Below are positions 10,776 to 51,855 of a DNA stretch of 64,000 nucleotides, piece by piece (within the stretch, counting starts at the first letter, position 1; every line of letters begins with the position of its first letter). The notes beneath the pieces were generated by a model. It did not search any database, had not been told where the DNA came from, and worked only from the letters and a program-made list of their open reading frames with translations. The position numbers and the translations under genes are program-made. The stretch lies in NCBI RefSeq assembly GCF_058153355.1, contig NZ_CM177019.1, one strand, 5' to 3'.

Positions 10776-10802
10776 AAATTGCCTGATGCACTACGCTTAT
10801 CA

Positions 10803-12029
<1,227 letters not shown>

Positions 12030-12059
12030 CATGCCTGCAATCTGGGAAACCGGGGTAGA

Positions 12060-12090
<31 letters not shown>

Positions 12091-12206
12091 TCATTTCTGC
12101 AATATATTGAATTTGGAATAATTTGTAGGCCGGATAAGGCGTTTAAGCCGCATCCGGCATAAACAAAGCGCACTATTCCTGCGTTAAAAAACGCCGGAAA
12201 AACGTT

Positions 12207-21192: not shown

Positions 21193-21680
21193 AGCGATTG
21201 AAAGCCGACGTGCTGGCGGCGAATCTGGCGCTTTATCGTCGCTATGCAGAAATTGGCGGTATTGTGCATACCCACTCGCGCCACGCCACCATCTGGTCAC
21301 AGGCCGGGCTGGATCTCCCCGCCTGGGGCACCACGCACGCCGATTATTTCTATGGTGCCATCCCCTGCACGCGACAGATGACCGCAGAGGAGATTAACGG
21401 CGAATATGAATATCAGACCGGCGAAGTGATCATTGAAACTTTCGAAGAACGCGGCAGGAGTCCGGCACAAATCCCGGCGGTATTGGTGCATTCTCACGGT
21501 CCGTTCGCCTGGGGCAATAACGCCGCCGATGCGGTGCATAATGCCGTGGTACTCGAAGAGTGCGCCTATATGGGCCTGTTCTCGCGCCAGCTTGCGCCGC
21601 AGCTTCCTGCGATGCAAAACGAACTTCTGGATAAGCATTACCTGCGTAAGCATGGGGCCAATGCCTATTACGGGCAGTAA
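21186..21680 (+). CDS. sgbE: L-ribulose-5-phosphate 4-epimerase with an in-frame internal deletion of ~67 codons (164 aa instead of ~231); probably non-functional
   Basis: N-terminus [16 protein letters not shown] joins directly to [21 protein letters not shown]..., omitting the block present in AraD-family epimerases (AraD: ...[21 protein letters not shown]...PTHRLLYQAF...); C-terminal two-thirds is intact. Confidence 0.75.
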
Positions 21681-21711: not shown

Positions 21712-22527
21712 CTACGAATTGATATGTTCCTTGCTGTAACGTCGCTTCCACGCAGCTGGCGTTAAACCGGTGTGTTTGCGAAAAATCTGTCGGAAATAGC
21801 CAACGTCATTAAACCCGCACAACGCCGCCACTTCCGTGAGCGATCGCGCTTCGCTAATTAACAGCTTTTCGGCTTCGCGCACTCGCTGGCGGTGGATTGC
21901 TTCTGTTAACGTCAGATGAAACACCCGCCGATAGACACGCCCAAGATAATCGGCATTGCAGTACAGCTCGCGGGCTAAAAGCGCCGTAGAAAGCGGGCGA
22001 TGATATTGCGTGCGGATCAGTTTCTGCGCTTTCCAGGCAAGCGTGGTACCTGCGGCATCGGCCTGTTCATCAAGACGCGCGTCACGGGTGAGTTGCTGCA
22101 AAATCAGCAGCACAATAAACTCCAGCGCCGGAGTGCGTTGATGCTTTTCCTGTTCGCTTAAGAACTGGCGAAACAGGGCCACCAGCGCCTGCGGATCGGC
22201 AACCTTCGTTTGTTGCGGCACGCTAAGATGAGTGAGCCAGCGCGGGTCGCTATCCGGCGCTTTAACCTCAAAATGCAGCCAGTAAAATTTGAGATCGGCG
22301 GGAAAATCCTCTACCCCAACATGCTGTCGGTTCGGCCAGAGTAATAAACTCTCTCCCGCATCGACCAGAAATATCCGCTCTTCTTCCTGAATCGTTAATC
22401 GACCTTTTTCGACAAAGATAATTTCCCATGACTCCAGCCGCCTTGCCGGATGCCTCCCTACGCCACGGGAAATAAATAATCCACCATTTTGCACTTTAAT
22501 CGGTAACGTCATGGATAATTCGAGCAT
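21712..22527 (-). CDS. AraC/XylS-family transcriptional regulator (cupin N-domain + HTH)
   Basis: 271 aa; C-terminal AraC HTH signature (...LTEVAALCGFNDVGYFRQIFRKHTGLTPAAWKRR); divergent from the MFS transporter gene. Confidence 0.8.
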   Translation of the reverse strand: MLELSMTLPIKVQNGGLFISRGVGRHPARRLESWEIIFVEKGRLTIQEEERIFLVDAGESLLLWPNRQHVGVEDFPADLKFYWLHFEVKAPDSDPRWLTHLSVPQQTKVADPQALVALFRQFLSEQEKHQRTPALEFIVLLILQQLTRDARLDEQADAAGTTLAWKAQKLIRTQYHRPLSTALLARELYCNADYLGRVYRRVFHLTLTEAIHRQRVREAEKLLISEARSLTEVAALCGFNDVGYFRQIFRKHTGLTPAAWKRRYSKEHINS

Positions 22528-22752: not shown

Positions 22753-24153
22753 ATGACCTCTACACCGATTACTACCGCTGATATCGCTAAAGGTAAAATT
22801 GACGATGCGTTATCTGTACGGGAAAAAATAGGCTACGGCCTGGGTGACGCAGGCGGCACCGTAATAACTTGCCTGATCATGAACTTTCTCACCTTTTTCT
22901 ACACCGACGTTTTTGGCTTAACTCCGGCGCTGGTCGGCACGCTGTTTATTGCACTGCGCGTGTTTGATGCCATCTCCGACCCGGTGATGGGCGTCATTGC
23001 CGACCGGACGCAAAGCCGCTGGGGGCGTTTTCGTCCGTGGCAGCTATGGATTGCCGTCCCTATTGGCATTATCGGCATCCTGACGTTCACCGTACCGGAC
23101 GCCAGTATGGGGGTGAAGATCGCCTGGGCGTTCGGCACCTATCTGCTGCTTTCCGTCGGTTATACCGCCATCAACGTGCCGTACTGCGCGCTGATCAACA
23201 CCATGACGACCCGCCACAATGAGGTAATTTCGTGCCAGTCCTGGCGATTCGTTCTCTGCGGCGTAGCGGGATTTCTGGTTTCGGTTGGCCTGCCGTGGAT
23301 GGTAGATCTCTTCGGTCAGGGTAATGCCGCGCGCGGCTATCAACTGGGCGTCGGCGTGCTGTGCGCCATCGCTGTGGTGATGTTCCTGTGCTGTTTCTTC
23401 TGGGTTCGTGAACGGGTGCCACTCTCCACAATGGGGAAATTTACCCTGCGCGAACATCTTGCCGGGCTGCGAAACAACGACCAACTGCTGCTGATGCTGG
23501 TCATGTCTTTCCTGCTGATTAACGTCTTTAATATTCGCGGCGGTGGGTATATGTACTTCATTACCTACGTCTTACAAGGCAGTACGGGCTACACGTCGCT
23601 GTTCTTCACTATGGTCACCTTCGCCTCCATTATCGGCTCGGTGATTGTCAGCCCGTTAACGCGACGTTTCGATACCGTCAAAATTTACTACTACACCAAC
23701 CTGCTCCTCGCCGCGCTGGCGGTGTTGATGTGGTTCCTGCCTTCTGGCCCGGCTTATCAAACGCTGTGGCTGGCGGTGATCCTTGGTAATGGCGTGATTC
23801 TTGGCTTCACATTGCCATTGCACTTCTCATTGATGGCCTTTGCCGATGACTACGGCGAGTGGAAAACCCGCGTACGTTCTTCCGGCATGAACTTCGCCTT
23901 CAATCTGTTTTTCATCAAGCTGGCCTGGGCCTCCAGCGCCGGGATCATCAGCCTGCTGTTTATTTTTGTCGCCTACCAGCCTGGCGTGGAAAACCAGACC
24001 GCCAGTTCGCTTGGCGGGATCGCGGCGATGGAAACATTGCTGCCTGCGCTGTTCCACCTGCTGCTGGCGATGGCGATCCGCTTTTGCAAACTCAATAACC
24101 CTATGATGTCACGCATTGCTAGCGACCTGCGTCAGCGTCATGTACAGCCTTAA
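22753..24153 (+). CDS. MFS transporter, glycoside-pentoside-hexuronide:cation symporter family
   Basis: 466 aa, ~12 predicted TM segments; GPH-family N-terminal region ([30 protein letters not shown], ...[13 protein letters not shown]). Confidence 0.8.
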
Positions 24154-24163
24154 GGAGCACAAG

Positions 24164-26134
24164 ATGAACATTTCGGAAGTCGATCTGCATAAACTGACGG
24201 TCAGCGATCCGTTCCTCGGTCAGTACCAACAACTGGTCCGCGACGTGGTGATTCCTTATCAGTGGGATGCCTTGAACGATCGTATCCCAGAAGCGGAACC
24301 CAGCCATGCGATTGAAAACTTTCGCATTGCCGCAGGACTGCAAGACGGTGAATTTTACGGGATGGTGTTTCAGGACAGCGACGTCGCCAAATGGCTGGAA
24401 GCGGTAGCCTGGTCGCTGTGCCAGAAGCCGGATGCCGAACTGGAAAAAACTGCTGACGAGGTAATCGAACTGGTCGCTTCCGCCCAGTGCGAAGATGGCT
24501 ATCTCAATACTTACTTTACGGTAAAAGCGCCCGAAGAACGCTGGAGCAATCTGGCGGAGTGTCATGAACTTTACTGCGCCGGTCATCTGATTGAAGCCGG
24601 AGTCGCCTTCTTCCAGGCCACGGGCAAGCGGCGCTTGCTGGAAGTGGTTTGCCGTCTGGCCGATCATATCGACAGCGTATTTGGTCCAGGTGAAAGTAAG
24701 TTACACGGTTATCCTGGTCATCCGGAAATTGAACTGGCACTGATGCGCCTGTATGAAGTGACCGAAGAGCCGCGCTACCTGGCGCTGACGAACTATTTTG
24801 TCGAACAGCGTGGTGCGCAACCGCACTATTACGACTAGGAATATGAAAAGCGCGGGCAGACCTCGCACTGGCACACCTACGGCCCGGCGTGGATGGTGAA
24901 AGACAAAGCCTACAGCCAGGCACATTTGCCCATCGCACAGCAGCAAACCGCCATTGGTCACGCGGTACGTTTTGTCTACCTGATGACCGGCGTCGCGCAT
25001 CTCGCGCGTTTAAGTCACGATGAAAGCAAGCGTCAGGACTGCCTGCGGCTGTGGAACAATATGGCCCAGCGTCAGTTATATATTACCGGCGGCATTGGCT
25101 CACAAAGCAGCGGCGAAGCGTTCAGCAGCGATTACGATCTGCCGAATGACACGGTATACGCCGAAAGCTGTGCTTCCATCGGCCTGATGATGTTCGCCCG
25201 GCGAATGCTGGAAATGGAAGGCGACAGTCACTATGCCGATGTGATGGAGCGCGCACTGTACAACACCGTGCTCGGCGGCATGGCGCTGGATGGCAAACAT
25301 TTCTTCTATGTGAATCCGCTGGAAGTACATCCAAAATCGCTGAAATTCAACCATATCTACGATCACGTTAAGCCGATCCGCCAGCGTTGGTTTGGTTGCG
25401 CTTGTTGTCCGCCAAATATCGCCCGCGTGCTAACCTCGATTGGTCATTATCTCTACACGCCGCGTGAAGATGCGTTGTATATCAACATCTACGCAGGAAA
25501 CAGCATGGAAGTGCCGGTAGAAAATGGCACGCTGCGTCTGCGGGTTAGCGGAAACTATCCGTGGCAGGAACAGGTGACAATTGCGGTTGAATCGCCCCAG
25601 CCGGTGCGTCATACGCTGGCTTTACGTCTGCCGGACTGGTGCACACAGCCGCAGATTACATTGAATGGGGAAGAGGTCGAGCAGGATATTCGTAAAGGGT
25701 ATTTGCACATTACCCGCGAATGGCAGGAGGGCGACACGCTGAATCTGACTTTGCCAATGCCGGTACGTCGCGTTTACGGTAACCCGCTGGTGCGTCACGT
25801 CGCCGGAAAAGTGGCGATTCAGCGCGGCCCGCTGGTGTATTGCCTGGAACAGGCCGACAACGGCGAGTCACTGCATAACCTGTGGCTGCCCGCCGATGCG
25901 CCATTTACGACATTTGAAGGTAATGGATTGTTCCGCCATAAGATCTTAATCCAGGCACCGGGTTACCGGTATGAACAGAGCAATCCAGAGCAGCAACCGC
26001 TGTGGCATTACGACAGCGCGCCAGCCAAACGCCAGCCGCAAACTCTGACATTTATCCCGTGGTTTAGCTGGGCTAACCGGGGTGAAGGCGAAATGCGGAT
26101 CTGGGTGAATGAGGAAAACCAGTGCCATCCGTAG
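24164..26134 (+). pseudogene. Glycoside hydrolase family 127-like (beta-L-arabinofuranosidase / DUF1680) gene interrupted by one in-frame TAG at 24836-24838
   Basis: The ORFs 24116-24838 and 24893-26134 are in the same frame and separated only by an amber codon (…AQPHYYD*EYEKRGQTSHWHTYGPAWMVKDKA…); combined length ~656 aa is typical of GH127; RBS AAGGAG 7 nt before the ATG at 24164. Confidence 0.65.
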
Positions 26135-26136
26135 GT

Positions 26137-26215
26137 AGGATAAGGCGCTCGCGCCGCATCCAACCTAGGGTGCACATTGCCTGATGCGACGCTTAACGCG
26201 TCTTATCAAGCCTGA
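26137..26215. repeat. REP-like palindromic sequence
   Basis: ggataaggcgctcgcgccgcatcc and gcctgatgcgacgc motifs. Confidence 0.4.
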
Positions 26216-30947: not shown

Positions 30948-32485
30948 TCAGAACAGCCCCAACGGTTTATCTGAGTAGCTCACCAGCAGGCACTTGGTTT
31001 GCTGATAATGCTCAAGCATCATCTTATGGGTTTCGCGCCCAATACCCGACTGCTTATAGCCACCAAACGCCGCATGTGTCGGGTAAGCGTGATAACAGTT
31101 GGTCCACACTCGCCCGGCCTGAATGCCGCGCCCCATCTTATAGGCCAGATTACCGTTGCGGCTCCAGACACCAGCCCCCAGACCATATTGCGTGTCGTTC
31201 GCCAGCTCCAGCGCTTCTTCCATCGTTTTGAAGGTGGTTACCGCCAGCACCGGACCAAAAATTTCTTCCTGGAACACGCGCATATTATTCTGACCAAACA
31301 GAATCGTCGGTTCGAGGTAGTAGCCGTCTTTCAGTTCGCCTTCCAGCAGCTTGCGCCGCCCACCGGTGAGCACGTCTGCGCCCTCTTTTTTACCGATATC
31401 AATGTAGTTGAGGATGGTTTCCAGTTGCCCGTGCGAAACTTGCGCCCCCATTTGCGTCACGCTATCGAGCGGGTTACCGCTGCGAATGCTTTCGACACGG
31501 CGGATGGCGCGTTCCATAAAGCGTTCGTAGATAGACTCCTGCACTAAAGCACGGCTTGGACAGGTGCAAACTTCGCCCTGGTTAAAGGCAAACAGTGCAA
31601 AGCCTTCCAGCGCTTTATCGAAAAAGGCATCTTCTTCATCCATCACATCAGCAAAGAAGATATTGGCGACTTGCCGCCCAGCTCCAGGGTTACCGGAATA
31701 ATATTTTGCGTGGCGTACTGCATAATTTGTTGGCCCACTTCCGTTGAGCCGGTAAACGCCACTTTAGCGATGCGTTTCGAGGTCGCCAGATATTCGCCAA
31801 TTTCCCCACCAGCACCGTTGACCACGTTCACCACGCCCGGCGGCAGTAAATCACCGACGATTTCCATTAGCAGCAGTACAGAAAGCGGGGTAAGACGTGC
31901 GGGTTTCAGCACCACACAGTTGCCCGCCGCCAGCGCGGGAGCCATTTTCCAGCTCGCCATCAGCAGCGGGAAGTTCCACGGAATAATCTGCCCCACCACG
32001 CCTAACGGTTCGTGGAAGTGATAAGCCACAGTTTCGCTATCAACTTCACTGATCCCACCTTCCTGCGCCCGAATACACGAGGCGAAATAGCGGAAGTGGT
32101 CAATCGCCAGCGGTACATCAGCAGCACTGGTTTCGCGAATGGGTTTGCCGTTATCCCAGGTTTCAGCCGTCGCTAAAAGTTCGAGGTTTTGCTCCATTCG
32201 ATCGGCAATCTTAAACAGAATCGCCGCGCGATCCTGCACCGAAGTATGCGCCCATTTATCTTTCACTTTATGCGCAGCATCCAGCGCCAGATCGATATCT
32301 CGTTTACCCGAAGACGCCACTTCGCACAGTAGCTGCCCGGTCACCGGCGTCAGGTTCTGGTAATACTCGCCGTCGGCGGGCGCGACCCATTCGCCGCCAA
32401 TAAAGTTGTCATAGCGGGCTTTTAACTTGAGGGGGAAGCCATACTCGCCGGGCTTAATCTGTGCTGAAGGGGGATTGTTGGTCAT
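30948..32485 (-). pseudogene. aldB: Aldehyde dehydrogenase B with a 1-bp deletion (frameshift) near codon ~279
   Basis: N-fragment ([20 protein letters not shown]… to …LELGGKSP) and C-fragment (…[16 protein letters not shown]… to …DKPLGLF) are both ALDH sequence in different frames; junction reads ggcaagtcgccaatatcttc, where a further A (ccaaatatc) would restore …[16 protein letters not shown]…. Confidence 0.8.
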
Positions 32486-37965: not shown

Positions 37966-38180
37966 GCCGAGTCCTTTGTGCGAGGAAAAATATCAGTATG
38001 GCCTGGTGATGGGAAAAAGGGCAGAAAATGTTGATGGTTTGTTACTTCCCAATAAATCACATATTTATCATGGTGATATAAATATTTTCCTAATTGTTCT
38101 TATCTGACAGATATCTCACTTAAGGCTTTCTTATAAATCTGTAGGGTTTGCACCATGAGTGCGGTAGCTATGAGGTTTAT

Positions 38181-40493
38181 ATGTCCTCAGAAGGATTACG
38201 TTTCACGCTGTCGGTGGCCGGTATCGTGGAGATGGCGACGGCGGTGGTGAGCTTCCGTCTGTACCAGCACCACTGCACGCCGTTCATCCTGGATGTGGAT
38301 ATCGCCAGCGGGCTGCCCGACCTGACGGCGGAGGATTTTCTGGAGAAGAGCGCGGTGCTGACGGTCTGGCAGGGTGATATCCCGCAGCGTTACGTCAGCG
38401 GTATCGTGACGGAGGTGCAGCTCGGTGAGAACAACGACTGGCAGATGCGTTATTCCCTGAGCATCAGCCCGCCGCTGTGGCGGGCAGGGTTACGGCAGAA
38501 CTTCCGTATCTTCCAGCAGCAGGACATTCAGACGATATCAGCACAGCTTCTGAGAGAGAACGGGGTGACGGCGTGGATGCCGCTGTTCTATGAGGCGCAC
38601 CCGGCGCGGGAGTTCTGCGTGCAGTACGGGGAGAGCGACCTGGCATTCCTGACCCGGCTGTGGGCGGAGGAAGGTATCTTCTTTTATGAGCGCTGCGGTC
38701 AGGAAGGGCCGGAGCAGAAGCTGGCGGTGTGTGATGACGTGGCGGGGCTGACGGGAATGGGGGCGCTGGCGTTTAACCCGAATACCACGACCGGGGGAAC
38801 GACGGAGTACATCAGTGAGTTTCGTTACCGTGCGCAGATAAGCGTGGCGTCGGTGGAGACGCAGGATTATACGTTCAAAACGCCGGGGTGGCCGGGGTAC
38901 TACAGCCATGACGGGGAGAGCCTGAACGGGCAGGGAACGCAGTACGAGATATTTGATTATCCGGGGCGTTTCAAGGATGAGCAGCATGGCCAGGATTTTG
39001 CGCGTTACCAGACGGAAGGGTGGCGGAACGGGGCGGAGACGGCGAGCGGGGTGTGTAACACGGCGCGGCTGTGGCCGGGAACGCGGTTCCGGCTGACGGG
39101 CCATCCCTCAGAGACGCTGAACCGGGAATGGCAGGTTGTGGGAAGCACACTGCGGGGAGAACAGCCGCAGGCGCTGCACGGGAGTCACGGTGAAGGGACG
39201 ACACTGAGCAATCAGTTTGAGGTGATACCGGCAGACAGGACGTGGCGTCACGCGCCGCTGCCGAAGCCGAAGGTGGACGGCCCGCAGAGTGCCATCGTGA
39301 CCGGGCCGAAGGGTGAGGAGATATTCTGCGACGAGCATGGCCGGGTACGGGTGAAGTTTCACTGGGACCGTTATCACGGGATGACGGAGGAGAGTTCGTG
39401 CTGGATACGGGTGTCGCAGGCATGGGCGGGACCGGGGTTCGGCAATCTGGCGATACCGCGTGTGGGTCAGGAAGTGATAGTGGACTTTCTGAACGGCGAC
39501 CCGGACCAGCCCATTGTGACGGGGCGGACCTACCATGAAGATAACCGTTCACCGGGGGATTTACCGGGCACGCGGACGCAGATGACCATCCGCTCGAAGA
39601 CCTATAAAGGAAGCGGCTTTAATGAACTGCGTTTCGAGGATGCGACGGACAGTGAGCAGGTGTATATCCACGCGCAGAAGAACATGGACACGGAGGTGCT
39701 TAACGACCGGACGACGGACGTGAAGCATGACCATACGGAGACCATCGGTAACGACCAGAAGATAAGGGTGGTGAAGGGGCAGACGGTTGAGGTCGGCACC
39801 AGAAAAGAAGGGGGTCACGACCAGAGTATCACGGTGGCGAACGACCGGCGCATAACGGTACGTAATGACCAGACGCTGAAGGTGACGAATGACCGGACGG
39901 TGAGCGTGAGTCACGATGACGGCCTGTATGTCAGAAACGACCGTAAAGTGACGGTGGAAGGGAAGCAGGAGCATAAGACGACGGGGAACCATATCAGCCT
40001 GGTGGAGGGAAAGCACAGTCTGGAGGTGAAGGGCGACCTGGCGGAGAAGGTGAGTGGCGCGCTGGGGATCAAGGTGGACGGGGATATCGTGCTGGAGAGC
40101 AGCAGCCGGATAAGCCTGAAAGTGGGCGGCTCGTTCGTGGTGATACACTCTGGCGGTGTGGATATTGCGGGGCCGAAGATAAACCTCAACGGGGGAGGCA
40201 GTCCGGGGACGCCAGTACAGACGTTACAACCGGTGGTACTGGAGGCGCTGGAGGATGAGAATGATGATGAGAACCCTGAAAAATATACTCTCCAGTTCCA
40301 TTTTACAGACGATGACGGGATACCGTATTCAGAGACACGCTACATTGCCTTCTTTGAGGACGGCACGCAGACGCGAGGGGAGACGGATGAAAATGGGTAT
40401 ACGGAAACATTCTCCACTGACAGCGAGCAGACAATCGAAGTCAGATTGTTGCATTTGAATATCGATATGATATGGGGAGGGATTAATGAATAG
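38181..40493 (+). CDS. vgrG: Type VI secretion spike protein VgrG (copy 1) with ~80-aa C-terminal extension (possible transthyretin-like adaptor domain)
   Basis: 770 aa from MSSEGLRFTLSVAGIVE…; gp27-like N-domain, gp5-like OB/beta-helix region with repeated VxVxV-type strands (…ITVANDRRITVRNDQTLKVTNDRTVSVSHDD…), then …VVIHSGGVDIAGPKINLNGGGSPG and an extension …YTLQFHFTDDDGIPYSETRYIAFFEDGTQTRGETDENGYTETF…. No YD repeats, so not Rhs. Confidence 0.9.
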   Translation: MSSEGLRFTLSVAGIVEMATAVVSFRLYQHHCTPFILDVDIASGLPDLTAEDFLEKSAVLTVWQGDIPQRYVSGIVTEVQLGENNDWQMRYSLSISPPLWRAGLRQNFRIFQQQDIQTISAQLLRENGVTAWMPLFYEAHPAREFCVQYGESDLAFLTRLWAEEGIFFYERCGQEGPEQKLAVCDDVAGLTGMGALAFNPNTTTGGTTEYISEFRYRAQISVASVETQDYTFKTPGWPGYYSHDGESLNGQGTQYEIFDYPGRFKDEQHGQDFARYQTEGWRNGAETASGVCNTARLWPGTRFRLTGHPSETLNREWQVVGSTLRGEQPQALHGSHGEGTTLSNQFEVIPADRTWRHAPLPKPKVDGPQSAIVTGPKGEEIFCDEHGRVRVKFHWDRYHGMTEESSCWIRVSQAWAGPGFGNLAIPRVGQEVIVDFLNGDPDQPIVTGRTYHEDNRSPGDLPGTRTQMTIRSKTYKGSGFNELRFEDATDSEQVYIHAQKNMDTEVLNDRTTDVKHDHTETIGNDQKIRVVKGQTVEVGTRKEGGHDQSITVANDRRITVRNDQTLKVTNDRTVSVSHDDGLYVRNDRKVTVEGKQEHKTTGNHISLVEGKHSLEVKGDLAEKVSGALGIKVDGDIVLESSSRISLKVGGSFVVIHSGGVDIAGPKINLNGGGSPGTPVQTLQPVVLEALEDENDDENPEKYTLQFHFTDDDGIPYSETRYIAFFEDGTQTRGETDENGYTETFSTDSEQTIEVRLLHLNIDMIWGGINE
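39163..40040. repeat. Near-identical ~0.9-kb vgrG 3'-core repeat, copy 1 of 3
   Basis: Sequence and six-frame antisense ORFs are identical to 43497-44374 and 49075-49900 (e.g. ORF 39602-39799 = 43935-44132 = 49459-49656). Confidence 0.85.
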
Positions 40494-40576
40494 AGAGTGA
40501 CCGCCTGTAATTGGCGTGTTTTTGCATAAATGGAACAGGGTTTTGTAGTGAAAACATATTGCTAAGGAGGATTTAT

Positions 40577-41422
40577 ATGGGAGATGGAAAGGGTAGTACG
40601 AGCGGAAAAAGCCAGAGCGGTGAACAGTGTGTAGTTTTAAAGGAGGGAAAAATTACTAATGATTTTAAAATAATGATGAGAGAGGCTCTGAAGGCGCTGA
40701 TGGCTGTATTGAAGAAAAGAGTAGAAGATCTTGGTGATAAATGGGGAGAGGAACAAAATCAGGAGTTTATAAATATATTTGGTATTGATGGAAATACTTA
40801 TATTAAATTAGAGTTCCCTTTCGGGGGGCGTAAGGTTATGTTTCCAGAGAATATAAAGGCAAGGGATTATATGAGAAATGGCGTTACTCGCCTGTATGAG
40901 ATATGTGGGGAATTATCTGTGGAAGGTGATTGTGTAGACGTTACTATTCATGACCATTTCCTCAAACGTGATGCCAATTGTAATCTTGTTCTTAATGACA
41001 AAGGGGGTAATGAATATGTTGACAAAGACGTAATCAGGCCCAAAACCGGTAACTTTGTGAATTGTACAGATAATGACGCTTATGCTGCCAATGTAACTTA
41101 CGATCAGATTTTGGGTGTAAAACCTGGAGGCTTTAAAAGTTTGGTAAGTATAACTATAGGACAAAGATTTATAGATAGGCCACCCACTGGGAAAAACTCT
41201 AAGGCATCGACACTCTGCCATGAACTATCTCACTTTATAAGGTACGGGGATTCATTTAAGTTTGGAGGCATGTGGACGGAAGATATGCCGGTAGATATAG
41301 AGTATAATACAGGTGACGAATATATTGTTCATGCCACTAAATTAAAAAATGATAAAAAATCAGAACTATTTCAGAATGCATATAATATCGAACGTTATTT
41401 CGAGATTCATGTACCATATTGA
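40577..41422 (+). CDS. Putative T6SS effector, HExxH zincin-like metallopeptidase candidate
   Basis: 281 aa from ATG 40577 (RBS aaggagg upstream); AT-rich; HELSH motif at 41219-41233 followed by …GGMWTEDMPVDIEYNTGDEY…; no signal peptide; directly downstream of vgrG-1. Confidence 0.55.
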   Translation: MGDGKGSTSGKSQSGEQCVVLKEGKITNDFKIMMREALKALMAVLKKRVEDLGDKWGEEQNQEFINIFGIDGNTYIKLEFPFGGRKVMFPENIKARDYMRNGVTRLYEICGELSVEGDCVDVTIHDHFLKRDANCNLVLNDKGGNEYVDKDVIRPKTGNFVNCTDNDAYAANVTYDQILGVKPGGFKSLVSITIGQRFIDRPPTGKNSKASTLCHELSHFIRYGDSFKFGGMWTEDMPVDIEYNTGDEYIVHATKLKNDKKSELFQNAYNIERYFEIHVPY

Positions 41423-41446
41423 TGCTTTTATTTGACGGGGGAGTAT

Positions 41447-42355
41447 ATGCTTGCTAGATGGATTGTTTTTATTGTTTTTTTTGCGCATCCAATATTTGCT
41501 TATGATATCTCTGGCGATTATGCTGTTCATTACAGATATGGGAAGTTATATTGGAATGGAGTAATGGACAAACTTGGTGTCTATCCTCGTGTAGAGCCGA
41601 CAAGGCTTAATTATTATGATTATTATGATGATCTTTCAGCCTATGCTGTTTTTCAATATTATACTATCAGTAAAAATGAGAGTCAGTATAATCAAGATAA
41701 AAATAAAATATATCTTCATCTTTCCGTGCATCAGAAAGAAAATATTGTAGCAGCTGCAGTGGTTTTATCGAATAAAAGCCAGGGATCTTATTTTGTTCAT
41801 CGACTAACTCTTCCTCTTGACGTTAACGGCGGGCCTTACTCTTCCTTGTGTAGTGGTGTGTTTATACCGATAATGGATAACATTCAGTTGGATTTTTTAA
41901 AAAAAACAAAATGTAGCTTTGGTGAATGGAAAAATAAATCCGTTTGGCACGAGATATTAACAGGGAAAGAGCTATCCTTTGATGTCATATTGAACGATTA
42001 TTATGCCTTTTTACCGGGCATTCATCGTTATAATATAGGAACGGTAGAATTTACAATAGTTAATCAAGAGTGGTTTACAGAACAATGTATATATGAGTAT
42101 TTTCTTTCTATTATGAACTGGCGGGCAGAAAGTGAGTGTACTAATCCTATAGATAAAATAAGATATGGTATAGAGGAGTGGCGGGTTTGGAGAATTTGTG
42201 GACCTTATCGTGGGTCAGGTCTATTTCAGGATTTTTTAGCACGCTTTGGCTATCATGGCGGTAATGATAATATATTCAAAATAAGATCAAATCAGGTTGT
42301 GGTTACTATTGATGGGGATAGGGCATCTCCTCCTTATTCGTTGAGGAATTATTAA
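41447..42355 (+). CDS. Putative cognate immunity protein (secreted/periplasmic) for the HExxH effector
   Basis: ~303 aa with N-terminal signal peptide MLARWIVFIVFFAHPIFA; AT-rich; starts 24 bp after the effector stop; no recognisable family. Confidence 0.45.
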   Translation: MLARWIVFIVFFAHPIFAYDISGDYAVHYRYGKLYWNGVMDKLGVYPRVEPTRLNYYDYYDDLSAYAVFQYYTISKNESQYNQDKNKIYLHLSVHQKENIVAAAVVLSNKSQGSYFVHRLTLPLDVNGGPYSSLCSGVFIPIMDNIQLDFLKKTKCSFGEWKNKSVWHEILTGKELSFDVILNDYYAFLPGIHRYNIGTVEFTIVNQEWFTEQCIYEYFLSIMNWRAESECTNPIDKIRYGIEEWRVWRICGPYRGSGLFQDFLARFGYHGGNDNIFKIRSNQVVVTIDGDRASPPYSLRNY

Positions 42356-42510
42356 TGTTAACTTATTGTCATGGCTACAATTCGTTGGTTTTCCTGTTGA
42401 GATGATAATATATATGAGAAAAACAGGCAATGAACCAGTGAGAGAATATCAGAAGATACGGTCAACATCGGTTAATTACTTTTTCCTGTAGCGATACCAG
42501 GGAGGTCATC

Positions 42511-44712
42511 ATGTCATTAAAAGGGCTGCGCTTTACGCTGACGGTGGACGGACTGGTGCCGGAGACGTTTGCGGTGGTGGATTTCCGCCTCACGCAGGCA
42601 TACTCATCGCCGTTCGTCCTGGATGTGGACGTTGCCAGCGACTCGTTCCGCCAGACGGCGGAGAAGCTGCTGGAGAAGGGGGCCGTACTGACCATCTGGC
42701 AGGGTGGCACGGCGCTGCGTTATGTGAGCGGTGTGGTGTCGGGGTTCGGCATGAAGGAGCACAACGGCTGGCAGATGCAGTACCACCTTCAGATACGTCC
42801 GCCCCTGTGGCGCAGCGGGCTGCGCCAGAACTACCGAATCTTCCAGCAGCAGGACATTCAGGCCATCTCCGCCACGCTGTTAAACGAGGACGGAGTGACG
42901 CAGTGGACGCCGCGCTTTTATGAGAGCCACCCGGCACGGGAGTTCTGCGTCCAGTACGGTGAAAGCGACATGGCGTTTCTGACCCGGCTGTGGGCGGGGG
43001 AAGGCATCTTCTTTTATGACAGATACGCTGACGACAGCCCGGAGCAGACGCTCACGCTGTGCGATGATGTGGCGGGCCTGCCGGTGTACGGGGAGATACC
43101 GTTTAACCCGAACACCCGTGAGGTGACGACGGCGTGCATCAGCCTGTTCCGCTACCAGGCGCAGGTGCGGCCCTCGCAGGTGCGTTCAAAAGACCACACG
43201 TTTAAGGTGCCGGACTGGCCGGGTATTTACATTGAGGATGCTGAAAACCTCAACGGGCAACTGAAGCAGTACAAAATCCTGGACTGGCCGGGGCGCTACA
43301 AGGACGAGCAGCATGGTCAGGACTTTACCCGCTACCGGCTGGAAGGGCTGCGTAACAGTGCTGAAACCGCCACAGGTATCAGTAACTCCCCGGCGCTGTG
43401 GCCGGGACGGCGGTTCACCTTGACGGGGCATCCGGTACAGGGAGCGAACCCGAACCGTGAGTGGCAGGTGGTGAGCAGCACGCTGACGGGGAGCCAGCCG
43501 CAGGCGCTGCACGGGAGTCACGGTGAAGGGACGACACTGAGCAATCAGTTTGAGGTGATACCGGCAGACAGGACGTGGCGTCACGCGCCGCTGCCGAAGC
43601 CGAAGGTGGACGGCCCGCAGAGTGCCATCGTGACCGGGCCGAAGGGTGAGGAGATATTCTGCGACGAGCATGGCCGGGTACGGGTGAAGTTTCACTGGGA
43701 CCGTTATCACGGGATGACGGAGGAGAGTTCGTGCTGGATACGGGTGTCGCAGGCATGGGCGGGACCGGGGTTCGGCAATCTGGCGATACCGCGTGTGGGT
43801 CAGGAAGTGATAGTGGACTTTCTGAACGGCGACCCGGACCAGCCCATTGTGACGGGGCGGACCTACCATGAAGATAACCGTTCACCGGGGGATTTACCGG
43901 GCACGCGGACGCAGATGACCATCCGCTCGAAGACCTATAAAGGAAGCGGCTTTAATGAACTGCGTTTCGAGGATGCGACGGACAGTGAGCAGGTGTATAT
44001 CCACGCGCAGAAGAACATGGACACGGAGGTGCTTAACGACCGGACGACGGACGTGAAGCATGACCATACGGAGACCATCGGTAACGACCAGAAGATAAGG
44101 GTGGTGAAGGGGCAGACGGTTGAGGTCGGCACCAGAAAAGAAGGGGGTCACGACCAGAGTATCACGGTGGCGAACGACCGGCGCATAACGGTACGTAATG
44201 ACCAGACGCTGAAGGTGACGAATGACCGGACGGTGAGCGTGAGTCACGATGACGGCCTGTATGTCAGAAACGACCGTAAAGTGACGGTGGAAGGGAAGCA
44301 GGAGCATAAGACGACGGGGAACCATATCAGCCTGGTGGAGGGAAAGCACAGTCTGGAGGTGAAGGGCGACCTGGCGAGGAAGATTACCGGTGCGCTGGGA
44401 ATGAAGGTCCGGAATGAAATCGTACTGGAGAGTGGCGGTAAAATCACCCTAAAGGTGGGTGGTTCGTTTGTGGTCATCCATTCAGGGGGCGTGGACATCG
44501 TCGGGCCGAAAATCAATCTCAATAGCGGCGGTAGTCCGGGAACGCCGGTGCCGACGCTACGACCGGCGGTTTTGAAAGCGCTGGCAGATTATGACAATGG
44601 CGGACCTGGAACTGAAGGGGCGGAGCCACCACGGAAAAGTGTACAGGAAGCCTTTGATCCTCCCCAGCAGGATAAGGTACCGCCACAACGGCCGGGAAGA
44701 TTCTCACGATAA
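42511..44712 (+). CDS. vgrG: Type VI secretion spike protein VgrG (copy 2)
   Basis: 733 aa from MSLKGLRFTLTVDGLVPETFAVVDF…; same architecture as copy 1; short Pro/Gln-rich C-terminal tail. Confidence 0.9.
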   Translation: MSLKGLRFTLTVDGLVPETFAVVDFRLTQAYSSPFVLDVDVASDSFRQTAEKLLEKGAVLTIWQGGTALRYVSGVVSGFGMKEHNGWQMQYHLQIRPPLWRSGLRQNYRIFQQQDIQAISATLLNEDGVTQWTPRFYESHPAREFCVQYGESDMAFLTRLWAGEGIFFYDRYADDSPEQTLTLCDDVAGLPVYGEIPFNPNTREVTTACISLFRYQAQVRPSQVRSKDHTFKVPDWPGIYIEDAENLNGQLKQYKILDWPGRYKDEQHGQDFTRYRLEGLRNSAETATGISNSPALWPGRRFTLTGHPVQGANPNREWQVVSSTLTGSQPQALHGSHGEGTTLSNQFEVIPADRTWRHAPLPKPKVDGPQSAIVTGPKGEEIFCDEHGRVRVKFHWDRYHGMTEESSCWIRVSQAWAGPGFGNLAIPRVGQEVIVDFLNGDPDQPIVTGRTYHEDNRSPGDLPGTRTQMTIRSKTYKGSGFNELRFEDATDSEQVYIHAQKNMDTEVLNDRTTDVKHDHTETIGNDQKIRVVKGQTVEVGTRKEGGHDQSITVANDRRITVRNDQTLKVTNDRTVSVSHDDGLYVRNDRKVTVEGKQEHKTTGNHISLVEGKHSLEVKGDLARKITGALGMKVRNEIVLESGGKITLKVGGSFVVIHSGGVDIVGPKINLNSGGSPGTPVPTLRPAVLKALADYDNGGPGTEGAEPPRKSVQEAFDPPQQDKVPPQRPGRFSR
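43497..44374. repeat. Near-identical ~0.9-kb vgrG 3'-core repeat, copy 2 of 3
   Basis: See copy 1. Confidence 0.85.
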
Positions 44713-44721
44713 GGACTGAAC

Positions 44722-47211
44722 ATGAAAATCAGCCATCCCATCAGGGATAAAGAAGGCAAAGAGTTTCGCTCACTGGATGAGATAATGCGGCTTATTGACA
44801 AAGAAGCGCACGGAACCTGGCTGCTGGGTGGAAACGGGCTGTGGCACGGCGGGATACATATCAGTGACGTGTCTAATCCGTTATCAGCCCTGAAACCGGA
44901 TACCGCCGCTACCGGAGAACCGGTTCCTCTTCAGTTTATGGCCGATGGCACCATTGCGGCGTACCGGATAAATAATGATTACCTGAAAGGCCCCTACAAA
45001 GGGCAGCAACTCCGTTACAGCAGCACATTTGTTCTGGTGAAATCGCAGTGCCAGCCAGACCCGCAAAAAAAAGAAAGCTGGCTGGAATTTTACTGTCTCT
45101 ATATGCATCTGGCCCCGGTGAACGATTATCCCGGCTCCCCCTGCTATAAAGTTAAAACCGGGCATGGTGGCATATTGCTGCACCGATACATCCCGGGAAA
45201 GAACGGCCTTCCCGAGGGGCAGGAAAGCGGAGATCATGCCACGTACTGGATACCCCCGAAAATCAGCGGAAACAGGACACTTAATGCGGGAGATCGGTTT
45301 GTGTCATCCCGGACCGGACGTTTTTACGTGACCAATAACGGCCAGCCGGTCCTGACGACATTCGGACTGGTTCGCCTGCTGGAAGGCAATAAACCGGGGA
45401 ATGAGCAGTACTGGGTGACCCTGGATCCGGATCTGATGGAGTCAGATGGCGAAATACAGATGCTGATGCCTGAGTGGATGCAGAAGGCGAAGGCAAAAGG
45501 CATTTTTGACTCGGTACAGACGGTCGACGAAACGGAAGAGTGGAAAGTCAGTGCCGGAACACCGGTCGGATTTATGGGATGCGAGGATTATCCTGGCGAG
45601 GGAAGCGGTGAGATTGAGCGCGAGTGGTTCGTCCATCTGGAGGTTCTGAGTACAGACCCGAATATGCCAAAGTTCTTATCCAACCCGGCAGGCGTTAAGG
45701 GAGAAAAACGGACTGTTCTGGCACCAAAAGGGATAATTTTATACACCCGGCAGGCCGTTCCGGGACAGGAGGTATTTACCGCAACCGCAGCCACGCTGGG
45801 TGCTCAGCGCGTTCTTCCGCGGGAAGCCACGACACCAGTCACGGATGAATCGCAGCAGTGGTGGTTTAATATCACCGGAACCGGCTGGCTGCCACAAAAG
45901 GATGTTGAAGAGGCCGGACAGTATGATTTACTGAAGCTGGGTTTTCAACCGCTGGAGGAGAACAGCAGCGGTGACATGACGTACAGCCCGTACGAAGGAT
46001 GGGTGCCGGAAGCGTTTGACTCAATAAGCCGTGCCGCAGAACAGGGAGATGAGTGGCTGTATGAGCAGGTACCGCCCTTTTATCGTGAGCTGATGGCGGG
46101 TATGGATCAGGACGGTGATGGAAAAGTGACGGAGGAAGAGATCAGACAGGCGCTGATCGTGCGTGAACCACTGGTGAGAAATGTGGTGAATCATCTGATA
46201 GTTAAACACCACAGCGAATGGTACGGAGGGCGCTCGACAGGGCGGTGGGAAGGATTTTATAAAGATCTGGATACAGAGGAAGTGGCATACTGTGAGAAGT
46301 GGCAGCTGGATCTGGAGTGGATGAGCGGGGTATCTCCGTTTAATAGTGATGATGCTGTGTGGCATTTTCATCCGGTTGTGTTTTTGGACGCTATTAATTC
46401 CAAATCTGTGTGTGCTTGCAACAGAGATATAACATTAGATGAATTAAAAAAAGTTGCTCCTGCAGTAAGTGAAGGTCTTCTCAAAAGGTACCTCTACGAT
46501 ATAAATGCAGGGTTTATTCGGTTTGGTATGACCACTTGTAGAGAAAAAGCCCATTTTCTTGCTCAAATTATTCACGAGAGCGGTTATTTTAGATATACCA
46601 AAGAAATTAATGGTGAATCAGCTTCATATAGTCCGTGGTATGGCCGAGGCTTAATACAAGTTACAGGCGAAAGTAATTACACCGCCTATGGGGAATATAT
46701 CAATGAGGACGTAACATCTTCAGATTCCGCAAGAGATAAACTCATATCCTCCCCACATTGCGTATTATCTGCGTTTTGGTATTTCAATATATTCAAAAGA
46801 ATAAATGAAGATGCTAAAAATGATGATTTTAATAAAATTACAGTAGTGATTAATGGAGGGTATAATCATTATGATGAACGGTTGTCGATATTTAATAAAT
46901 TGGTTACCTCACTTGCTGCCGAGCATTTAAATCAGAAAGAAATGAACGACGATTTCTTGTTTGATGATAGTGACGTATATGATAATAAAGTATATGCTTT
47001 GGGATGGGGGATATGGCATGATCCTGATAGCTCCCGAAGAGGGACGATCAAGAGTAACGAAGAAGCATTAAAAGGTTATAGAAGGGCGAAAGAATTAATT
47101 GACCTGCATCCGTTTCCTCAGGAAGGGCGTGAGGGTGATAGAAAAGTATATGGAATAGAAAAAAGGAATATATCCACATTTGTAGAGAGACGAATAACTG
47201 AACTGGAGTAA
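44722..47211 (+). CDS. Large T6SS effector: possible M23/LytM-like N-region, EF-hand calcium-binding motif, C-terminal GH19/lysozyme-like peptidoglycan hydrolase domain
   Basis: 829 aa; EF-hand loop DQDGDGKVTEEE (~46102); C-terminal …REKAHFLAQIIHESGYFRYTKEINGESASYSPWYGRGLIQVTGESNYTAYG… (from ~46537) matches the GH19 / 'predicted chitinase' catalytic signature; N-region WHGGIHISDV…ADGTIAAY…YMHL resembles a divergent M23 peptidase (tentative). Confidence 0.7.
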   Translation: MKISHPIRDKEGKEFRSLDEIMRLIDKEAHGTWLLGGNGLWHGGIHISDVSNPLSALKPDTAATGEPVPLQFMADGTIAAYRINNDYLKGPYKGQQLRYSSTFVLVKSQCQPDPQKKESWLEFYCLYMHLAPVNDYPGSPCYKVKTGHGGILLHRYIPGKNGLPEGQESGDHATYWIPPKISGNRTLNAGDRFVSSRTGRFYVTNNGQPVLTTFGLVRLLEGNKPGNEQYWVTLDPDLMESDGEIQMLMPEWMQKAKAKGIFDSVQTVDETEEWKVSAGTPVGFMGCEDYPGEGSGEIEREWFVHLEVLSTDPNMPKFLSNPAGVKGEKRTVLAPKGIILYTRQAVPGQEVFTATAATLGAQRVLPREATTPVTDESQQWWFNITGTGWLPQKDVEEAGQYDLLKLGFQPLEENSSGDMTYSPYEGWVPEAFDSISRAAEQGDEWLYEQVPPFYRELMAGMDQDGDGKVTEEEIRQALIVREPLVRNVVNHLIVKHHSEWYGGRSTGRWEGFYKDLDTEEVAYCEKWQLDLEWMSGVSPFNSDDAVWHFHPVVFLDAINSKSVCACNRDITLDELKKVAPAVSEGLLKRYLYDINAGFIRFGMTTCREKAHFLAQIIHESGYFRYTKEINGESASYSPWYGRGLIQVTGESNYTAYGEYINEDVTSSDSARDKLISSPHCVLSAFWYFNIFKRINEDAKNDDFNKITVVINGGYNHYDERLSIFNKLVTSLAAEHLNQKEMNDDFLFDDSDVYDNKVYALGWGIWHDPDSSRRGTIKSNEEALKGYRRAKELIDLHPFPQEGREGDRKVYGIEKRNISTFVERRITELE

Positions 47212-47216
47212 TTGAT

Positions 47217-47627
47217 ATGAAAGTTAATTTATTGGTTTTACTGTTTTGTTTGGTGCCTTGTTGTTTATTGGCTAAACAACAAACAACGGTAGGCTGTTTT
47301 AGCGCTGGGAAAACAAATTTAAAGTTTGTTGAAATATCGTCTGGCGATATTTTTTTAGGTTATGTGATTTATGAGAAATCCTCAAAATTTATACCTCTTG
47401 CGTTTATAAATAAATTAGAAGTGACTTTCGATGACAGGCCTTCTGAATTTTCTTATGCATGGAGCGAGGTTGTAAATGGAAAAATTAATGGGTTGTATGT
47501 TGTTTCCACACAAGGTGCAAGATTTAATTTGTTTCATTATAAATCAATAAGTGGGAAAACAACTGAGTTTGAAGAAAATATTGAGGCATATAATGATGAT
47601 GGTACTGATTGCAAATGGACTGGATGA
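47217..47627 (+). CDS. Putative periplasmic immunity protein for the lysozyme-like effector
   Basis: 136 aa with N-terminal signal sequence MKVNLLVLLFCLVPCCLLA; begins 5 bp after the effector stop; AT-rich. Confidence 0.45.
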   Translation: MKVNLLVLLFCLVPCCLLAKQQTTVGCFSAGKTNLKFVEISSGDIFLGYVIYEKSSKFIPLAFINKLEVTFDDRPSEFSYAWSEVVNGKINGLYVVSTQGARFNLFHYKSISGKTTEFEENIEAYNDDGTDCKWTG

Positions 47628-47775
47628 CCATTGTGCAGTTTTTTATGAAATCGATGCTGTGTTATTAAAATAATAATGCGACTAGGTTGAATTTGTTTAT
47701 TATTAATTTAAATGTTTTATGATTTTAAGTTAGACATGAATAACTGACTGGAAAATTATTTTTGAGGGATATCGT

Positions 47776-49070
47776 ACAGGCAGGCAGGGAAAGATCACGT
47801 AACGCTGCTTTTTTGTACTATACAATTCGCATTTTATGTTTGAAAATTGAGATATTCCTCATTACCTGAAGCTGTTTTTTATTGCTTATACATGATCAAA
47901 TACTCCTTACATAATTAAGGAGAACAAAATGGTACTTAAAAAATTGATGGAACATATTTCTATTATCCCCGATTACAGACAAGCCTGGAAAGTGGAACAT
48001 AAATTATCGGATATTCTACTGTTGACTATTTGCGCCGTTATTTCGGGTGCAGAAGGCTGGGAAGATATAGAGGATTTTGGGGAAACACATCTCGATTTTT
48101 TGAAGCAATATGGTGATTTTGAAAATGGTATTCCTGTTCACGATACCATTGTCAGAGTTGTATCCTGTATCAGTCCTGCAAAATTTCACGAGTGCTTTAT
48201 TAACTGGATGCGTGACTGCCATTCTTCAGATGATAAAGGCGTCATTGCAATTGATGGAAAAACGCTCCGGCACTCTTATGACAAGAGTCGCCGCAGGGGA
48301 GCGATTCATGTCATTAGTGCGTTCTCAACAATGCACAGTCTGGTCATCGGACAGATCAAGACGGATGAGAAATCCAATGAGATTACAGCTATCCCAGAAC
48401 TTCTTAACATGCTGGATATTAAAGGAAAAATCATCACAACTGATGCGATGGGTTGCCAGAAAGATATTGCAGAGAAGATACAAAAACAGGGAGGTGATTA
48501 TTTATTCGCGGTAAAAGGAAACCAGGGGCGGCTAAATAAAGCCTTTGAGGAAAAATTTCCGCTGAAAGAATTAAATAATCCAGATCATGACAGTTAAGCG
48601 ATTAGTGAAAAGAGTCACGGCAGAGAAAAAATCCGTCTTCATATTGTTTGCGATGTCCCTGATGAACTTATTGATTTCACGTTTGAATGGAAAGGTCTGA
48701 AGAAATTATGCGTGGCAGTCTCCTTTCGGTTAATAATAGCAGAACAAAAGAAAGAGCCAGAAATGACGGTCAGATATTATATCAGTTCTGCTGATTTAAC
48801 CGCAGAGAAGTTCGCCACAGCAATCCGAAACCACTGGCACGTGGAGAATAAGCTGCACTGGCGTCTGGACGTGGTAATGAATGAAGACGACTGCAAAATA
48901 AGAAGAGGAAACGCCGCAGAATTATTTTCAGGGATACGGCACATCGCTATTAATATTTTAACGAATGATAAGGTATTCAAGGCAGGGTTAAGACGTAAGA
49001 TGCGAAAAGCAGCCATGGACAGAAACTATCTCGCGTCAGTCCTTGCGGGGAGCGGGCTTTCGTAATCTTG
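47776..49070 (+). mobile_element. ISAs1-family (H-repeat / ISEc1-like) element inserted into vgrG copy 3
   Basis: ~1.3 kb; contains the H-repeat transposase gene; left-end sequence (gtacaggcagggaaagatcac…) recurs at 51856 and ~53976; right end abuts vgrG sequence beginning mid-gene (…FEVIPADRTW…). Confidence 0.7.
47929..49065 (+). pseudogene. ISAs1-family transposase (H-repeat protein, YhhI-like) with an in-frame TAA at 48595-48597
   Basis: ORFs 47929-48597 and 48712-49065 are in the same frame and both match the H-repeat protein ([58 protein letters not shown]… and …[41 protein letters not shown]…); full span would encode 378 aa. Confidence 0.8.
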
Positions 49071-49074
49071 CCCT

Positions 49075-49900
49075 GGAGGTGATACCGGCGGACAGGACGT
49101 GGCGTCACGCGCCCCTGCCGAAGCCGAAGGTGGACGGCCCGCAGAGTGCCATCGTGACCGGGCCGAAGGGCGAGGAGATATTCTGCGACGAGCATGGCCG
49201 GGTACGGGTGAAGTTTCACTGGGACCGTTATCACGGGATGACGGAGGAGAGTTCATGCTGGATACGGGCGTCGCAGGCATGGGCGGGACCGGGGTTCGGC
49301 AATCTGGCGATACCGCGTGTGGGTCAGGAAGTGATAGTGGACTTTCTGAACGGCGACCCGGACCAGCCCATTGTGACGGGGCGGACATACCATGAGGACA
49401 ACCGTTCACCGGGGGATTTACCGGGCACGCGGACGCAGATGACCATCCGCTCGAAGACCTATAAAGGAAGCGGCTTTAATGAACTGCGTTTCGAGGATGC
49501 GACGGACAGTGAGCAGGTGTATATCCACGCGCAGAAGAACATGGACACGGAGGTGCTTAACGACCGGACGACGGACGTGAAGCATGACCATACGGAGACC
49601 ATCGGTAACGACCAGAAGATAAGGGTGGTGAAGGGGCAGACGGTTGAGGTCGGCACCAGAAAAGAAGGGGGTCACGACCAGAGTATCACGGTGGCGAACG
49701 ACCGGCGCATAACGGTACGTAATGACCAGACGCTGAAGGTGACGAATGACCGGACGGTGAGCGTGAGTCACGATGACGGCCTGTATGTCAGAAACGACCG
49801 TAAAGTGACGGTGGAAGGGAAGCAGGAGCATAAGACGACGGGGAACCATATCAGTCTGGTGGAGGGAACGCACAGTCTGGAGGTGAAGGGCGACCTGGCG
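49075..49900. repeat. Near-identical vgrG 3'-core repeat, copy 3 of 3
   Basis: See copy 1. Confidence 0.8.
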
Positions 49901-51492: not shown

Positions 51493-51505
51493 AAAGGAGG
51501 TAGTA

Positions 51506-51778
51506 ATGGAGTTTAAAAATAATCTAGAAGATTATACGGAAGATGAATTTATCGAACTTCTAAATAATTTTTTTGAACCACCTGAGGAATTGCATGGCGA
51601 TAAGTTGTCGAAGTTTATTGATGATCTTGTAAGTCATTTTATTAGAATCACTCAGCACCCAGATGGTAGTGATTTGATATTCTATCCATCTGAAGATAGA
51701 GAAGATAGTCCCCAAGGGATTGTTGATGAGTTAAAACGATGGCGAGCATCGCAGGGGCTAGGATGCTTTAAAATATAA
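51506..51778 (+). CDS. Colicin E9-type DNase immunity protein (Im9-like)
   Basis: 90 aa: MEFKNNLEDYTEDEFIELLNNFF…HFIRITQHPDGSDLIFYPSEDREDSPQGIVDELKRWRASQG aligns along its length with Im9 (MELKHSISDYTEAEFLQLV…[35 protein letters not shown]); strong RBS aaggagg; 13 bp after the DNase stop. Confidence 0.85.
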   Translation: MEFKNNLEDYTEDEFIELLNNFFEPPEELHGDKLSKFIDDLVSHFIRITQHPDGSDLIFYPSEDREDSPQGIVDELKRWRASQGLGCFKI

Positions 51779-51855
51779 TGAAAATAAATACTCATCATAT
51801 TTTATTAAAATGATTGGTGTTTTTGTTATTAACCTTAAACCACTTCCTGAGAAGG

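Follow-up and report, generated by a model that had tools for sequence, protein, structure and literature searches.

We examined a stretch of Escherichia coli DNA of 64,000 nucleotides (hereafter the window), a chromosome segment that runs from xylA to yibL, and found that its glycoside hydrolase family 127 (GH127) gene is interrupted by a single in-frame amber codon. Translation of 24164–26137 gives a single frame with one internal stop (peptide ...AQPHYYD*EYEKRGQTSHWHTY...), and this TAG, at 24836–24838, is codon 225 of the 656-codon GH127 frame at 24164–26134 on the plus strand. Judged from the sequence, the gene is very probably a real and recent pseudogene, in which Gln225 has changed to an amber codon. 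We also consider the account as a whole likely, namely that this recent change inactivates a cytoplasmic GH127 enzyme, with deamination of a 5-methylcytosine in a Dcm site as its likeliest cause. The features on which this reading is built are the following.

24164–26134, plus strand: probable pseudogene of a GH127 (beta-L-arabinofuranosidase-like) protein, recognized by translation, by 99.5% identity to the intact WP_032304032.1, by Pfam and by PDB 4QJY
24836–24838, plus strand: amber TAG, Gln225 to stop by C>T at 24836; CAG in intact alleles
24164–24835, plus strand: N-terminal fragment of 224 aa that would be translated; spans roughly 56% of the catalytic domain, from its N-terminal end, without the catalytic residues
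24893–26134, plus strand: downstream in-frame ORF from Met244 to the end, 413 aa; listed by the ORF program, not a separate gene
24152–24157, plus strand: Shine-Dalgarno sequence AAGGAG, 6 nt 5′ of ATG 24164, overlapping the stop codon of the transporter gene

The preliminary description of this DNA had placed two ORFs, 24116–24838 and 24893–26134, in the same frame, assigned them to one protein and held that only the TAG parts them. Our analysis bears this out, since a single 656-codon translation with one internal stop covers both, and both match the same catalytic domain in Pfam: of the 376 positions of the PF07944 profile, 3–212 are matched by the N-terminal part and 212–375 by the C-terminal part, in which the middle and C-terminal domains of GH127 come next. 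Its upstream boundary, a TTG at 24116, has to be moved; the true start is ATG 24164, which follows the AAGGAG sequence and agrees with the start annotated in orthologues. WP_032304032.1, the intact protein closely matching the window's frame, is itself annotated as ‘glycoside hydrolase family 127 protein’.

To the intact orthologue Pfam assigns PF07944 (2.4e-111), PF20736 (2.4e-24) and PF20737 (1.9e-25), and the two fragments in the window jointly span the same profiles. The orthologue also aligns over its full length to two beta-L-arabinofuranosidases of solved structure, the GH127 protein of Geobacillus stearothermophilus (PDB 4QJY, E = 3.7e-236) and HypBA1 of Bifidobacterium longum (PDB 3WKW, E = 7.6e-153). 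In the latter alignment, HypBA1 residues E322, E338, C340, C417 and C418 pair with E318, E334, C336, C414 and C415 of the E. coli protein, all of them encoded 3′ of the amber codon. In HypBA1 we take E322 to be the acid/base, C417 the nucleophile, and E338, C340 and C418 the zinc ligands. With its domain set complete and the catalytic glutamate, the cysteine nucleophile and the zinc ligands all conserved, the gene is assigned from its sequence to GH127; it has the three-domain architecture (PF07944, PF20736, PF20737) of HypBA1 and 4QJY and keeps their acid/base Glu, nucleophile Cys and zinc ligands. It differs from them in that the E. coli enzyme is known from sequence alone, and in that the window's copy ends at residue 224. 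We found no published biochemical study of the GH127 enzyme of E. coli, and its beta-L-arabinofuranosidase activity is only assumed in a study of E. coli isolates (PMC11879602).

The amber codon severs the catalytic domain at position 212 of the 376 of PF07944 and thereby removes 44% of that domain together with both C-terminal domains. From the window's allele, translation would end after 224 residues, 5′ of every aligned catalytic or zinc-binding residue. Because the stop lies inside the catalytic domain and all five of these residues lie 3′ of it, the two GH127 ORFs are one recently broken gene, not two. A strain with the TAG allele would be expected to have lost the enzyme. Re-initiation at ATG 24893 was considered and rejected, as a Shine-Dalgarno-like sequence was sought 5′ of this ATG and none was found, and as half of the catalytic domain would be missing from the product. 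The intact orthologues, moreover, have no gene start at this position.

Between sgbE and yiaT lies an accessory island of three genes, an AraC regulator, an MFS transporter and, in last place, GH127. Its two other members are intact:

21712–22527, minus strand: AraC-family regulator, divergently oriented (Pfam AraC_binding and HTH_18)
22753–24153, plus strand: MFS_2 sugar transporter of the glycoside-pentoside-hexuronide type, upstream in the same operon as GH127 (PF13347, E = 4.6e-73)

Normally, this transporter would import a beta-L-arabinofuranosyl oligosaccharide, from which the cytoplasmic GH127 enzyme would free L-arabinose. The pairing of GH127 with an MFS transporter sets E. coli apart from the Bifidobacterium cluster, which has an ABC importer (PMC7263609). 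Since yiaT lies on the opposite strand, the amber codon would have no polar effect on any downstream gene. We checked 40 reference genes across the window, and 37 of them proved intact. The complete E. coli genome closest to the window shares 98.7% identity with it over 25 kb, and an exact 41-mer had 0 hits among the GTDB species representatives. Two neighbouring genes carry lesions private to the window's lineage. In sgbE, an in-frame deletion of 201 bp between 11-bp direct repeats leaves 164 aa instead of 231, and aldB has a −1 frameshift (AAA>AA near 31664), which lies in a short A-run and could be a homopolymer sequencing error. Both lesions fall within 11 kb and are missing from relatives with an intact GH127 gene, which suggests that in the window's lineage accessory catabolism has come under somewhat relaxed selection.

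At codon 225, L001, L021, L022, L065–L071 and all 24 full-length E. coli comparators carry CAG (Gln), and no orthologue terminates here with a separate gene start downstream. Two of these alleles, from L066 (GCA_025429105.1) and L071 (ERR7420778), are identical to the window's gene DNA except for the C>T at codon 225 (one difference in 1,971 nt). The protein that they encode, Escherichia GH127 protein P0063, is the window's sequence with Gln225, so that the ‘revertant’ is already on record. Relative to the closest complete genome, 9 of 1,971 nt differ in the window's gene, including the C>T at nt 673 that turns CAG (Gln225) into TAG. Beyond the amber codon, the gene shows two further private changes against the 24 comparators, both synonymous, and no further decay. 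Given intact alleles one base away and only these two further private changes, both silent, the inactivation is recent. The earlier suggestions of a recent event and of a one-step reversion that would restore the enzyme thus both stand, with CAG, one of the reversions that had been listed, as the ancestral codon.

The same substitution is also found on other genetic backgrounds. We distinguished three haplotypes with TAG at codon 225:

Haplotype A: TAG in the window and in L002; nearest intact alleles L066 and L071, 1 difference in 1,971 nt (C>T only)
Haplotype B: TAG in L012, L015, L016 and L020; nearest intact allele EC556 (L021), 3 differences in 7,675 nt
Haplotype C: TAG in L013 and L014; nearest intact allele 118UI (L022), 1 difference in 7,675 nt (C>T only)

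Over 1,940 nt, haplotypes B and C differ from that of the window by 51–59 nt, and the three are 22–59 nt from one another, while each is only 0–2 nt from an intact allele. Around the TAG there is no shared tract of flanking SNPs; the first positions on either side that differ from the haplotype of the window are at −94 and +68 nt. As judged from these alleles, the C>T at codon 225 arose independently on three haplotypes. Spread of one ancestral TAG by recombination we consider unlikely, because every TAG haplotype has a near-identical intact twin. Several further contigs that encode exactly the 224-aa protein (L003–L011 and L017–L019) were rejected as TAG carriers, as they end 0–2 nt past codon 224, mostly with C. 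The contigs L026–L028, L040–L044, L049–L052 and L058–L064 likewise end at the codon in question and were rejected too.

The mutated base lies within a Dcm methylation site, a point missed by the preliminary description. The codon context GAC-CAG-GAA of intact alleles has become GAC-TAG-GAA in the window, and similar sites, at which the same type of change would yield an amber codon, occur elsewhere in the gene. Three of these sites (no strand assigned) are:

24835–24839: mutated Dcm site, CTAGG here and CCAGG in intact alleles; inner cytosine changed
24408–24412: further amber-capable Dcm site CCTGG, Trp83; intact in the window, TAG in L030 and L032–L035
24916–24920: further amber-capable Dcm site CCAGG, Gln252; intact in the window, TAG in L023, L024 and L025, which are three divergent haplotypes

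Altogether the GH127 gene holds nine CCWGG sites, five of which are amber-capable (codons 83, 151, 225, 252 and 597). Of the 71 transitions that can create a stop, 5 are of the Dcm type, as are 5 of the 258 single-base changes that can do so, so that a random stop would fall at such a site only 2–7% of the time. Amber hotspots at Dcm sites are well established in this species; Coulondre, Miller, Farabaugh and Gilbert reportedly located those of lacI in 1978 (A6, A15 and A34). The lacI amber hotspots are C>T changes at the second C of CCAGG (PMC12606429), and the GH127 lesion is identical, the same G:C>A:T transition at that cytosine, converting CAG (Gln) to TAG and yielding CTAGG. The two cases differ in that the lacI hotspots come from a laboratory K-12 strain of known methylation and a defined mutant collection, whereas the GH127 event is deduced from natural alleles and its enrichment is rough. 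Dcm methylates the inner C of CCWGG, and the T:G mismatch in CTWGG/CCWGG is a substrate of Vsr repair (PMC2715241). In the proposed mechanism, 5-methylcytosine at the inner C of the Dcm site CCAGG would deaminate to T, and the resulting T:G mismatch would escape very-short-patch repair by Vsr, leaving the CTAGG amber. Both dcm and vsr are located outside the 64-kb window.

In line with such a mechanism, all five predicted Dcm amber sites were found as real TAG alleles in public assemblies:

Codon 83, TGG>TAG: L030, L032, L033 and L034/35; at least 4 haplotypes
Codon 151, CAG>TAG: L037–L039; 1–2 haplotypes
Codon 225, CAG>TAG: window/L002, L012 group and L013/14; 3 haplotypes
Codon 252, CAG>TAG: L023, L024 and L025; 3 haplotypes
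Codon 597, CAG>TAG: L072; 1 haplotype

As controls we took eight CAG or TGG codons outside Dcm sites and searched for stop alleles in the same way. Stops were found at three of the eight, with Gln87>TAG seen once and Trp236>TGA and Trp243>TGA on two haplotypes each; at control codons 108, 127, 215, 232 and 259 no stop alleles were found. Stops thus occur at 5 of 5 Dcm sites vs 3 of 8 control sites (Fisher p = 0.044), a comparison in which extra haplotypes were queried for codons 151 and 597; at equal search effort the figures are 3 of 4 vs 3 of 8, which is not significant. Counted as events, about 13 fall at Dcm sites vs 5 at controls, or roughly fourfold per site (binomial p = 0.004), with uneven effort and with events counted without a phylogeny. 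This approximately fourfold enrichment comes from uneven sampling and is a moderate, ascertainment-biased signal. Because ascertainment was uneven and events were counted without a tree, the Dcm mechanism is likely but not proven, and we regard it as a reasonably probable origin of the Gln225 amber codon.

The main competitor is an ordinary C>T, by replication error or from unmethylated cytosine, that happened to fall in CCAGG, with the recurrence explained by deep sampling or by short recombination tracts. Because non-Dcm control codons recur as well, and because deep sampling or recombination could yield the same pattern, recurrence alone is no proof of a hotspot. The repeated hits at codons 236 and 243 and the single one at codon 87 fit an ordinary transition, as do the many loss-of-function alleles of this gene, which is often deleted, and the lack of a significant site difference at equal search effort. 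Nevertheless, a random stop-creating mutation has the low prior given above (2–7%) of striking a Dcm-methylated C, the Dcm sites exceed the controls both in sites with a stop and in events per site (at uneven search effort), and ambers at the inner C of CCAGG are a textbook hotspot in E. coli. As for the recombination variant, it is at odds with the intact twin 0–2 nt from each TAG-225 haplotype and with the missing flanking-SNP tract. On balance, we consider an ordinary transition unlikely. Under the Dcm reading that we prefer, the GH127 lesion is an ordinary recent pseudogene of known mechanism, and no new mechanism or system is involved. What it offers is a clear-cut instance, from natural alleles, of the textbook amber hotspot at Dcm/5-methylcytosine sites, with a one-step intact ancestor still in circulation, and the five Dcm amber sites could serve to measure 5-methylcytosine mutability in wild populations.

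A full GH127 gene is present in 2,314 of 5,426 complete E. coli genomes, and in about 2,445 of the 5,426 (~45%) the island is reduced to a scar of ~190 bp, annotated in one genome as an internal GH127 remnant beside a 102-bp remnant of the AraC gene. These scar-only genomes indicate that the island is accessory and that much of the species has lost it by deletion, and the GH127 gene is dispensable. An accessory plant-glycan hydrolase of E. coli has thus been lost repeatedly, through point mutation as well as deletion. The window's case is like other strain-specific pseudogenes of accessory sugar genes in E. coli and Shigella, with one disabling point mutation and the rest of the operon untouched, and as in those cases neighbours (sgbE and aldB) are damaged too; a difference is that no insertion sequence is involved at the GH127 locus.

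Repeated loss invites an adaptive explanation, in which selection in certain niches favours inactivation and Dcm sites act as high-rate ‘off’ switches, accounting for both the knock-outs and the deletion. Of the 13 codons examined, 8 have stop alleles, which recur on many haplotypes. This is in keeping with such an explanation, as are the deletion of the island in part of the species and the two further lesions, private to the window's lineage, that lie nearby in a sugar gene (sgbE) and an aldehyde gene (aldB). A niche-dependent value is further suggested by a study of E. coli from inflammatory bowel disease, in which the invasiveness of the isolates correlated with the presence of GH127 (PMC11879602). 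Against selection for loss, TAG-225 was found in 0 of 2,298 complete genomes, and the TAG clades examined lie 0–2 nt from an intact allele. A rare stop with such close intact alleles fits short-lived pseudogenes that are neutral or mildly deleterious, and we judge adaptive loss improbable. To a more elaborate version, in which the five Dcm sites would be built-in ‘off’ switches under niche selection, Vsr-biased repair of heteroduplexes would favour CAG, and a slow on/off polymorphism of a gene for using dietary glycans, driven by methylation, would result, we give very little credence.

We searched the 2,298 complete E. coli genomes in which this stretch is present for a 61-mer containing the TAG and found it in none, which makes the allele a rare one and places the window's own genome outside that set. 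That rarity would also be expected if the TAG were an error of sequencing or assembly, the strain being truly CAG and its gene intact, and the frameshift in the short A-run of nearby aldB could be an error as well. However, public assemblies do contain the exact 224-aa product. The Logan assembly of SRR31441161, possibly the source reads of the window's assembly and not surely a separate isolate, shows 100% identity to the window across 5,206 bp, a segment that takes in both the TAG and the sgbE deletion private to this lineage, and two further contigs similar to it are on record. Consensus assemblies seldom carry substitution errors, and the identical C>T is present in unrelated isolates. With the haplotype seen in SRR31441161 and the change recurring on other haplotypes, an error, which had been among the initial suggestions, is very unlikely.

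A further suggestion, that the enzyme is still made through amber suppression or read-through, fared no better. The ancestral residue is Gln, which is exactly what a glnV/supE-type suppressor would be expected to insert, and the remaining frame is undamaged, which a very young pseudogene would be expected to show just as well. Suppressor strains are rare in nature, and neither a suppressor tRNA nor any other tRNA gene was found within the 64-kb window. TAG is, moreover, the normal stop in 4 of 33 window genes checked, including GH127's own terminator. The stop at codon 225 is conserved in no orthologue and is therefore not a programmed read-through signal, which leaves suppression scarcely credible. 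Finally, the notion of two genuine genes, whose polypeptides would act alone or as a split enzyme, has in its favour that gene callers annotate ORFs of 224 aa and 413 aa in assemblies with the TAG allele, but it is refuted by orthologues that read through uninterrupted (thousands in Escherichia, Salmonella, Klebsiella and Citrobacter, 649–662 aa, with intact alleles one base away), by a break within one Pfam domain and by an ATG 24893 without a ribosome-binding site, and its probability is negligible. In annotations, a single GH127 pseudogene (Gln225>amber) should take the place of the two ORFs.

Among the public contigs compared at the GH127 locus, we found many short metagenome and SRA contigs (L003-L011, L017-L019, L026-L028, L040-L044, L049-L052 and L058-L064) whose termini lie 0-2 nt from codons with nonsense alleles; no contig ends are on record at four control codons (non-Dcm CAG or TGG codons) without a nonsense allele. 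Termini at nonsense codons are likely to reflect assembly-graph breaks at within-sample polymorphism. Other changes were also found at Dcm codons. At codon 252 (gene nt 756), one allele (L067) carries a synonymous CAG to CAA substitution at the fourth position of the CCAGG site, as deamination of the bottom-strand 5-methylcytosine would produce, and at codon 83 another (L031) has TGG to TGA at the non-Dcm position of the codon.

Genomes lacking the GH127 island retain a scar in which the 3′ end of the AraC regulator gene survives as 102 bp and an internal part of GH127 as 189 bp (about 89.5% identical), as in E. coli strain 1FA (NZ_CP026360.1; positions 2397-2690 of the compared sequence, L076). 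The 189-bp GH127 fragment is the sole match in approximately 2,445 of the 5,426 complete E. coli genomes. In one assembly (L029; GCA_019430965.1, JABTXN010000019.1), regulator, transporter and GH127 genes are all split into many small ORFs, GH127 itself into four pieces, representing either advanced decay or a low-quality assembly.

Further features of the window are as follows.

10776-12206: IS110 insertion sequence, IS621 family, between avtA and ysaA
21186-21680: shortened sgbE (L-ribulose-5-phosphate 4-epimerase, annotated araD)
30948-32485, minus strand: aldB, frameshift near 31664
38148-53465: type VI secretion VgrG/effector island, between yibF and yibH
47929-48594: truncated H-repeat/ISAs1-type transposase, inside that island
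49978-51489: S-type pyocin/colicin DNase toxin ORF, adjoining the truncated third vgrG
52224-53462: N-acetylmuramidase effector, inside that island

The sgbE product has 164 aa, compared with the normal 231 aa, because of a 201-bp in-frame deletion (junction about 21220-21233) flanked by 11-bp direct repeats, ATCTGGCGCTT, between which it arose as a slippage-type event. This deletion is common to the window and the SRR31441161 contig, which has the same TAG haplotype, and relatives with an intact GH127 gene do not carry it. In aldB, codon 274 has lost 1 nt (CCAAATA to CCAATA) and premature stops follow, marking either a second pseudogene of the lineage or a sequencing error in a short homopolymer.

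The VgrG/effector island, which the reference genome used for comparison lacks, contains two full-length vgrG genes besides the truncated one. In the closest reference genome, Z0117EC0005, the avtA-ysaA interval is devoid of any element. Within the IS621-family element, the ORF at 11000-11977 encodes a DEDD transposase of 326 aa, annotated in other E. coli genomes as 'IS110-like element IS621 family transposase'.
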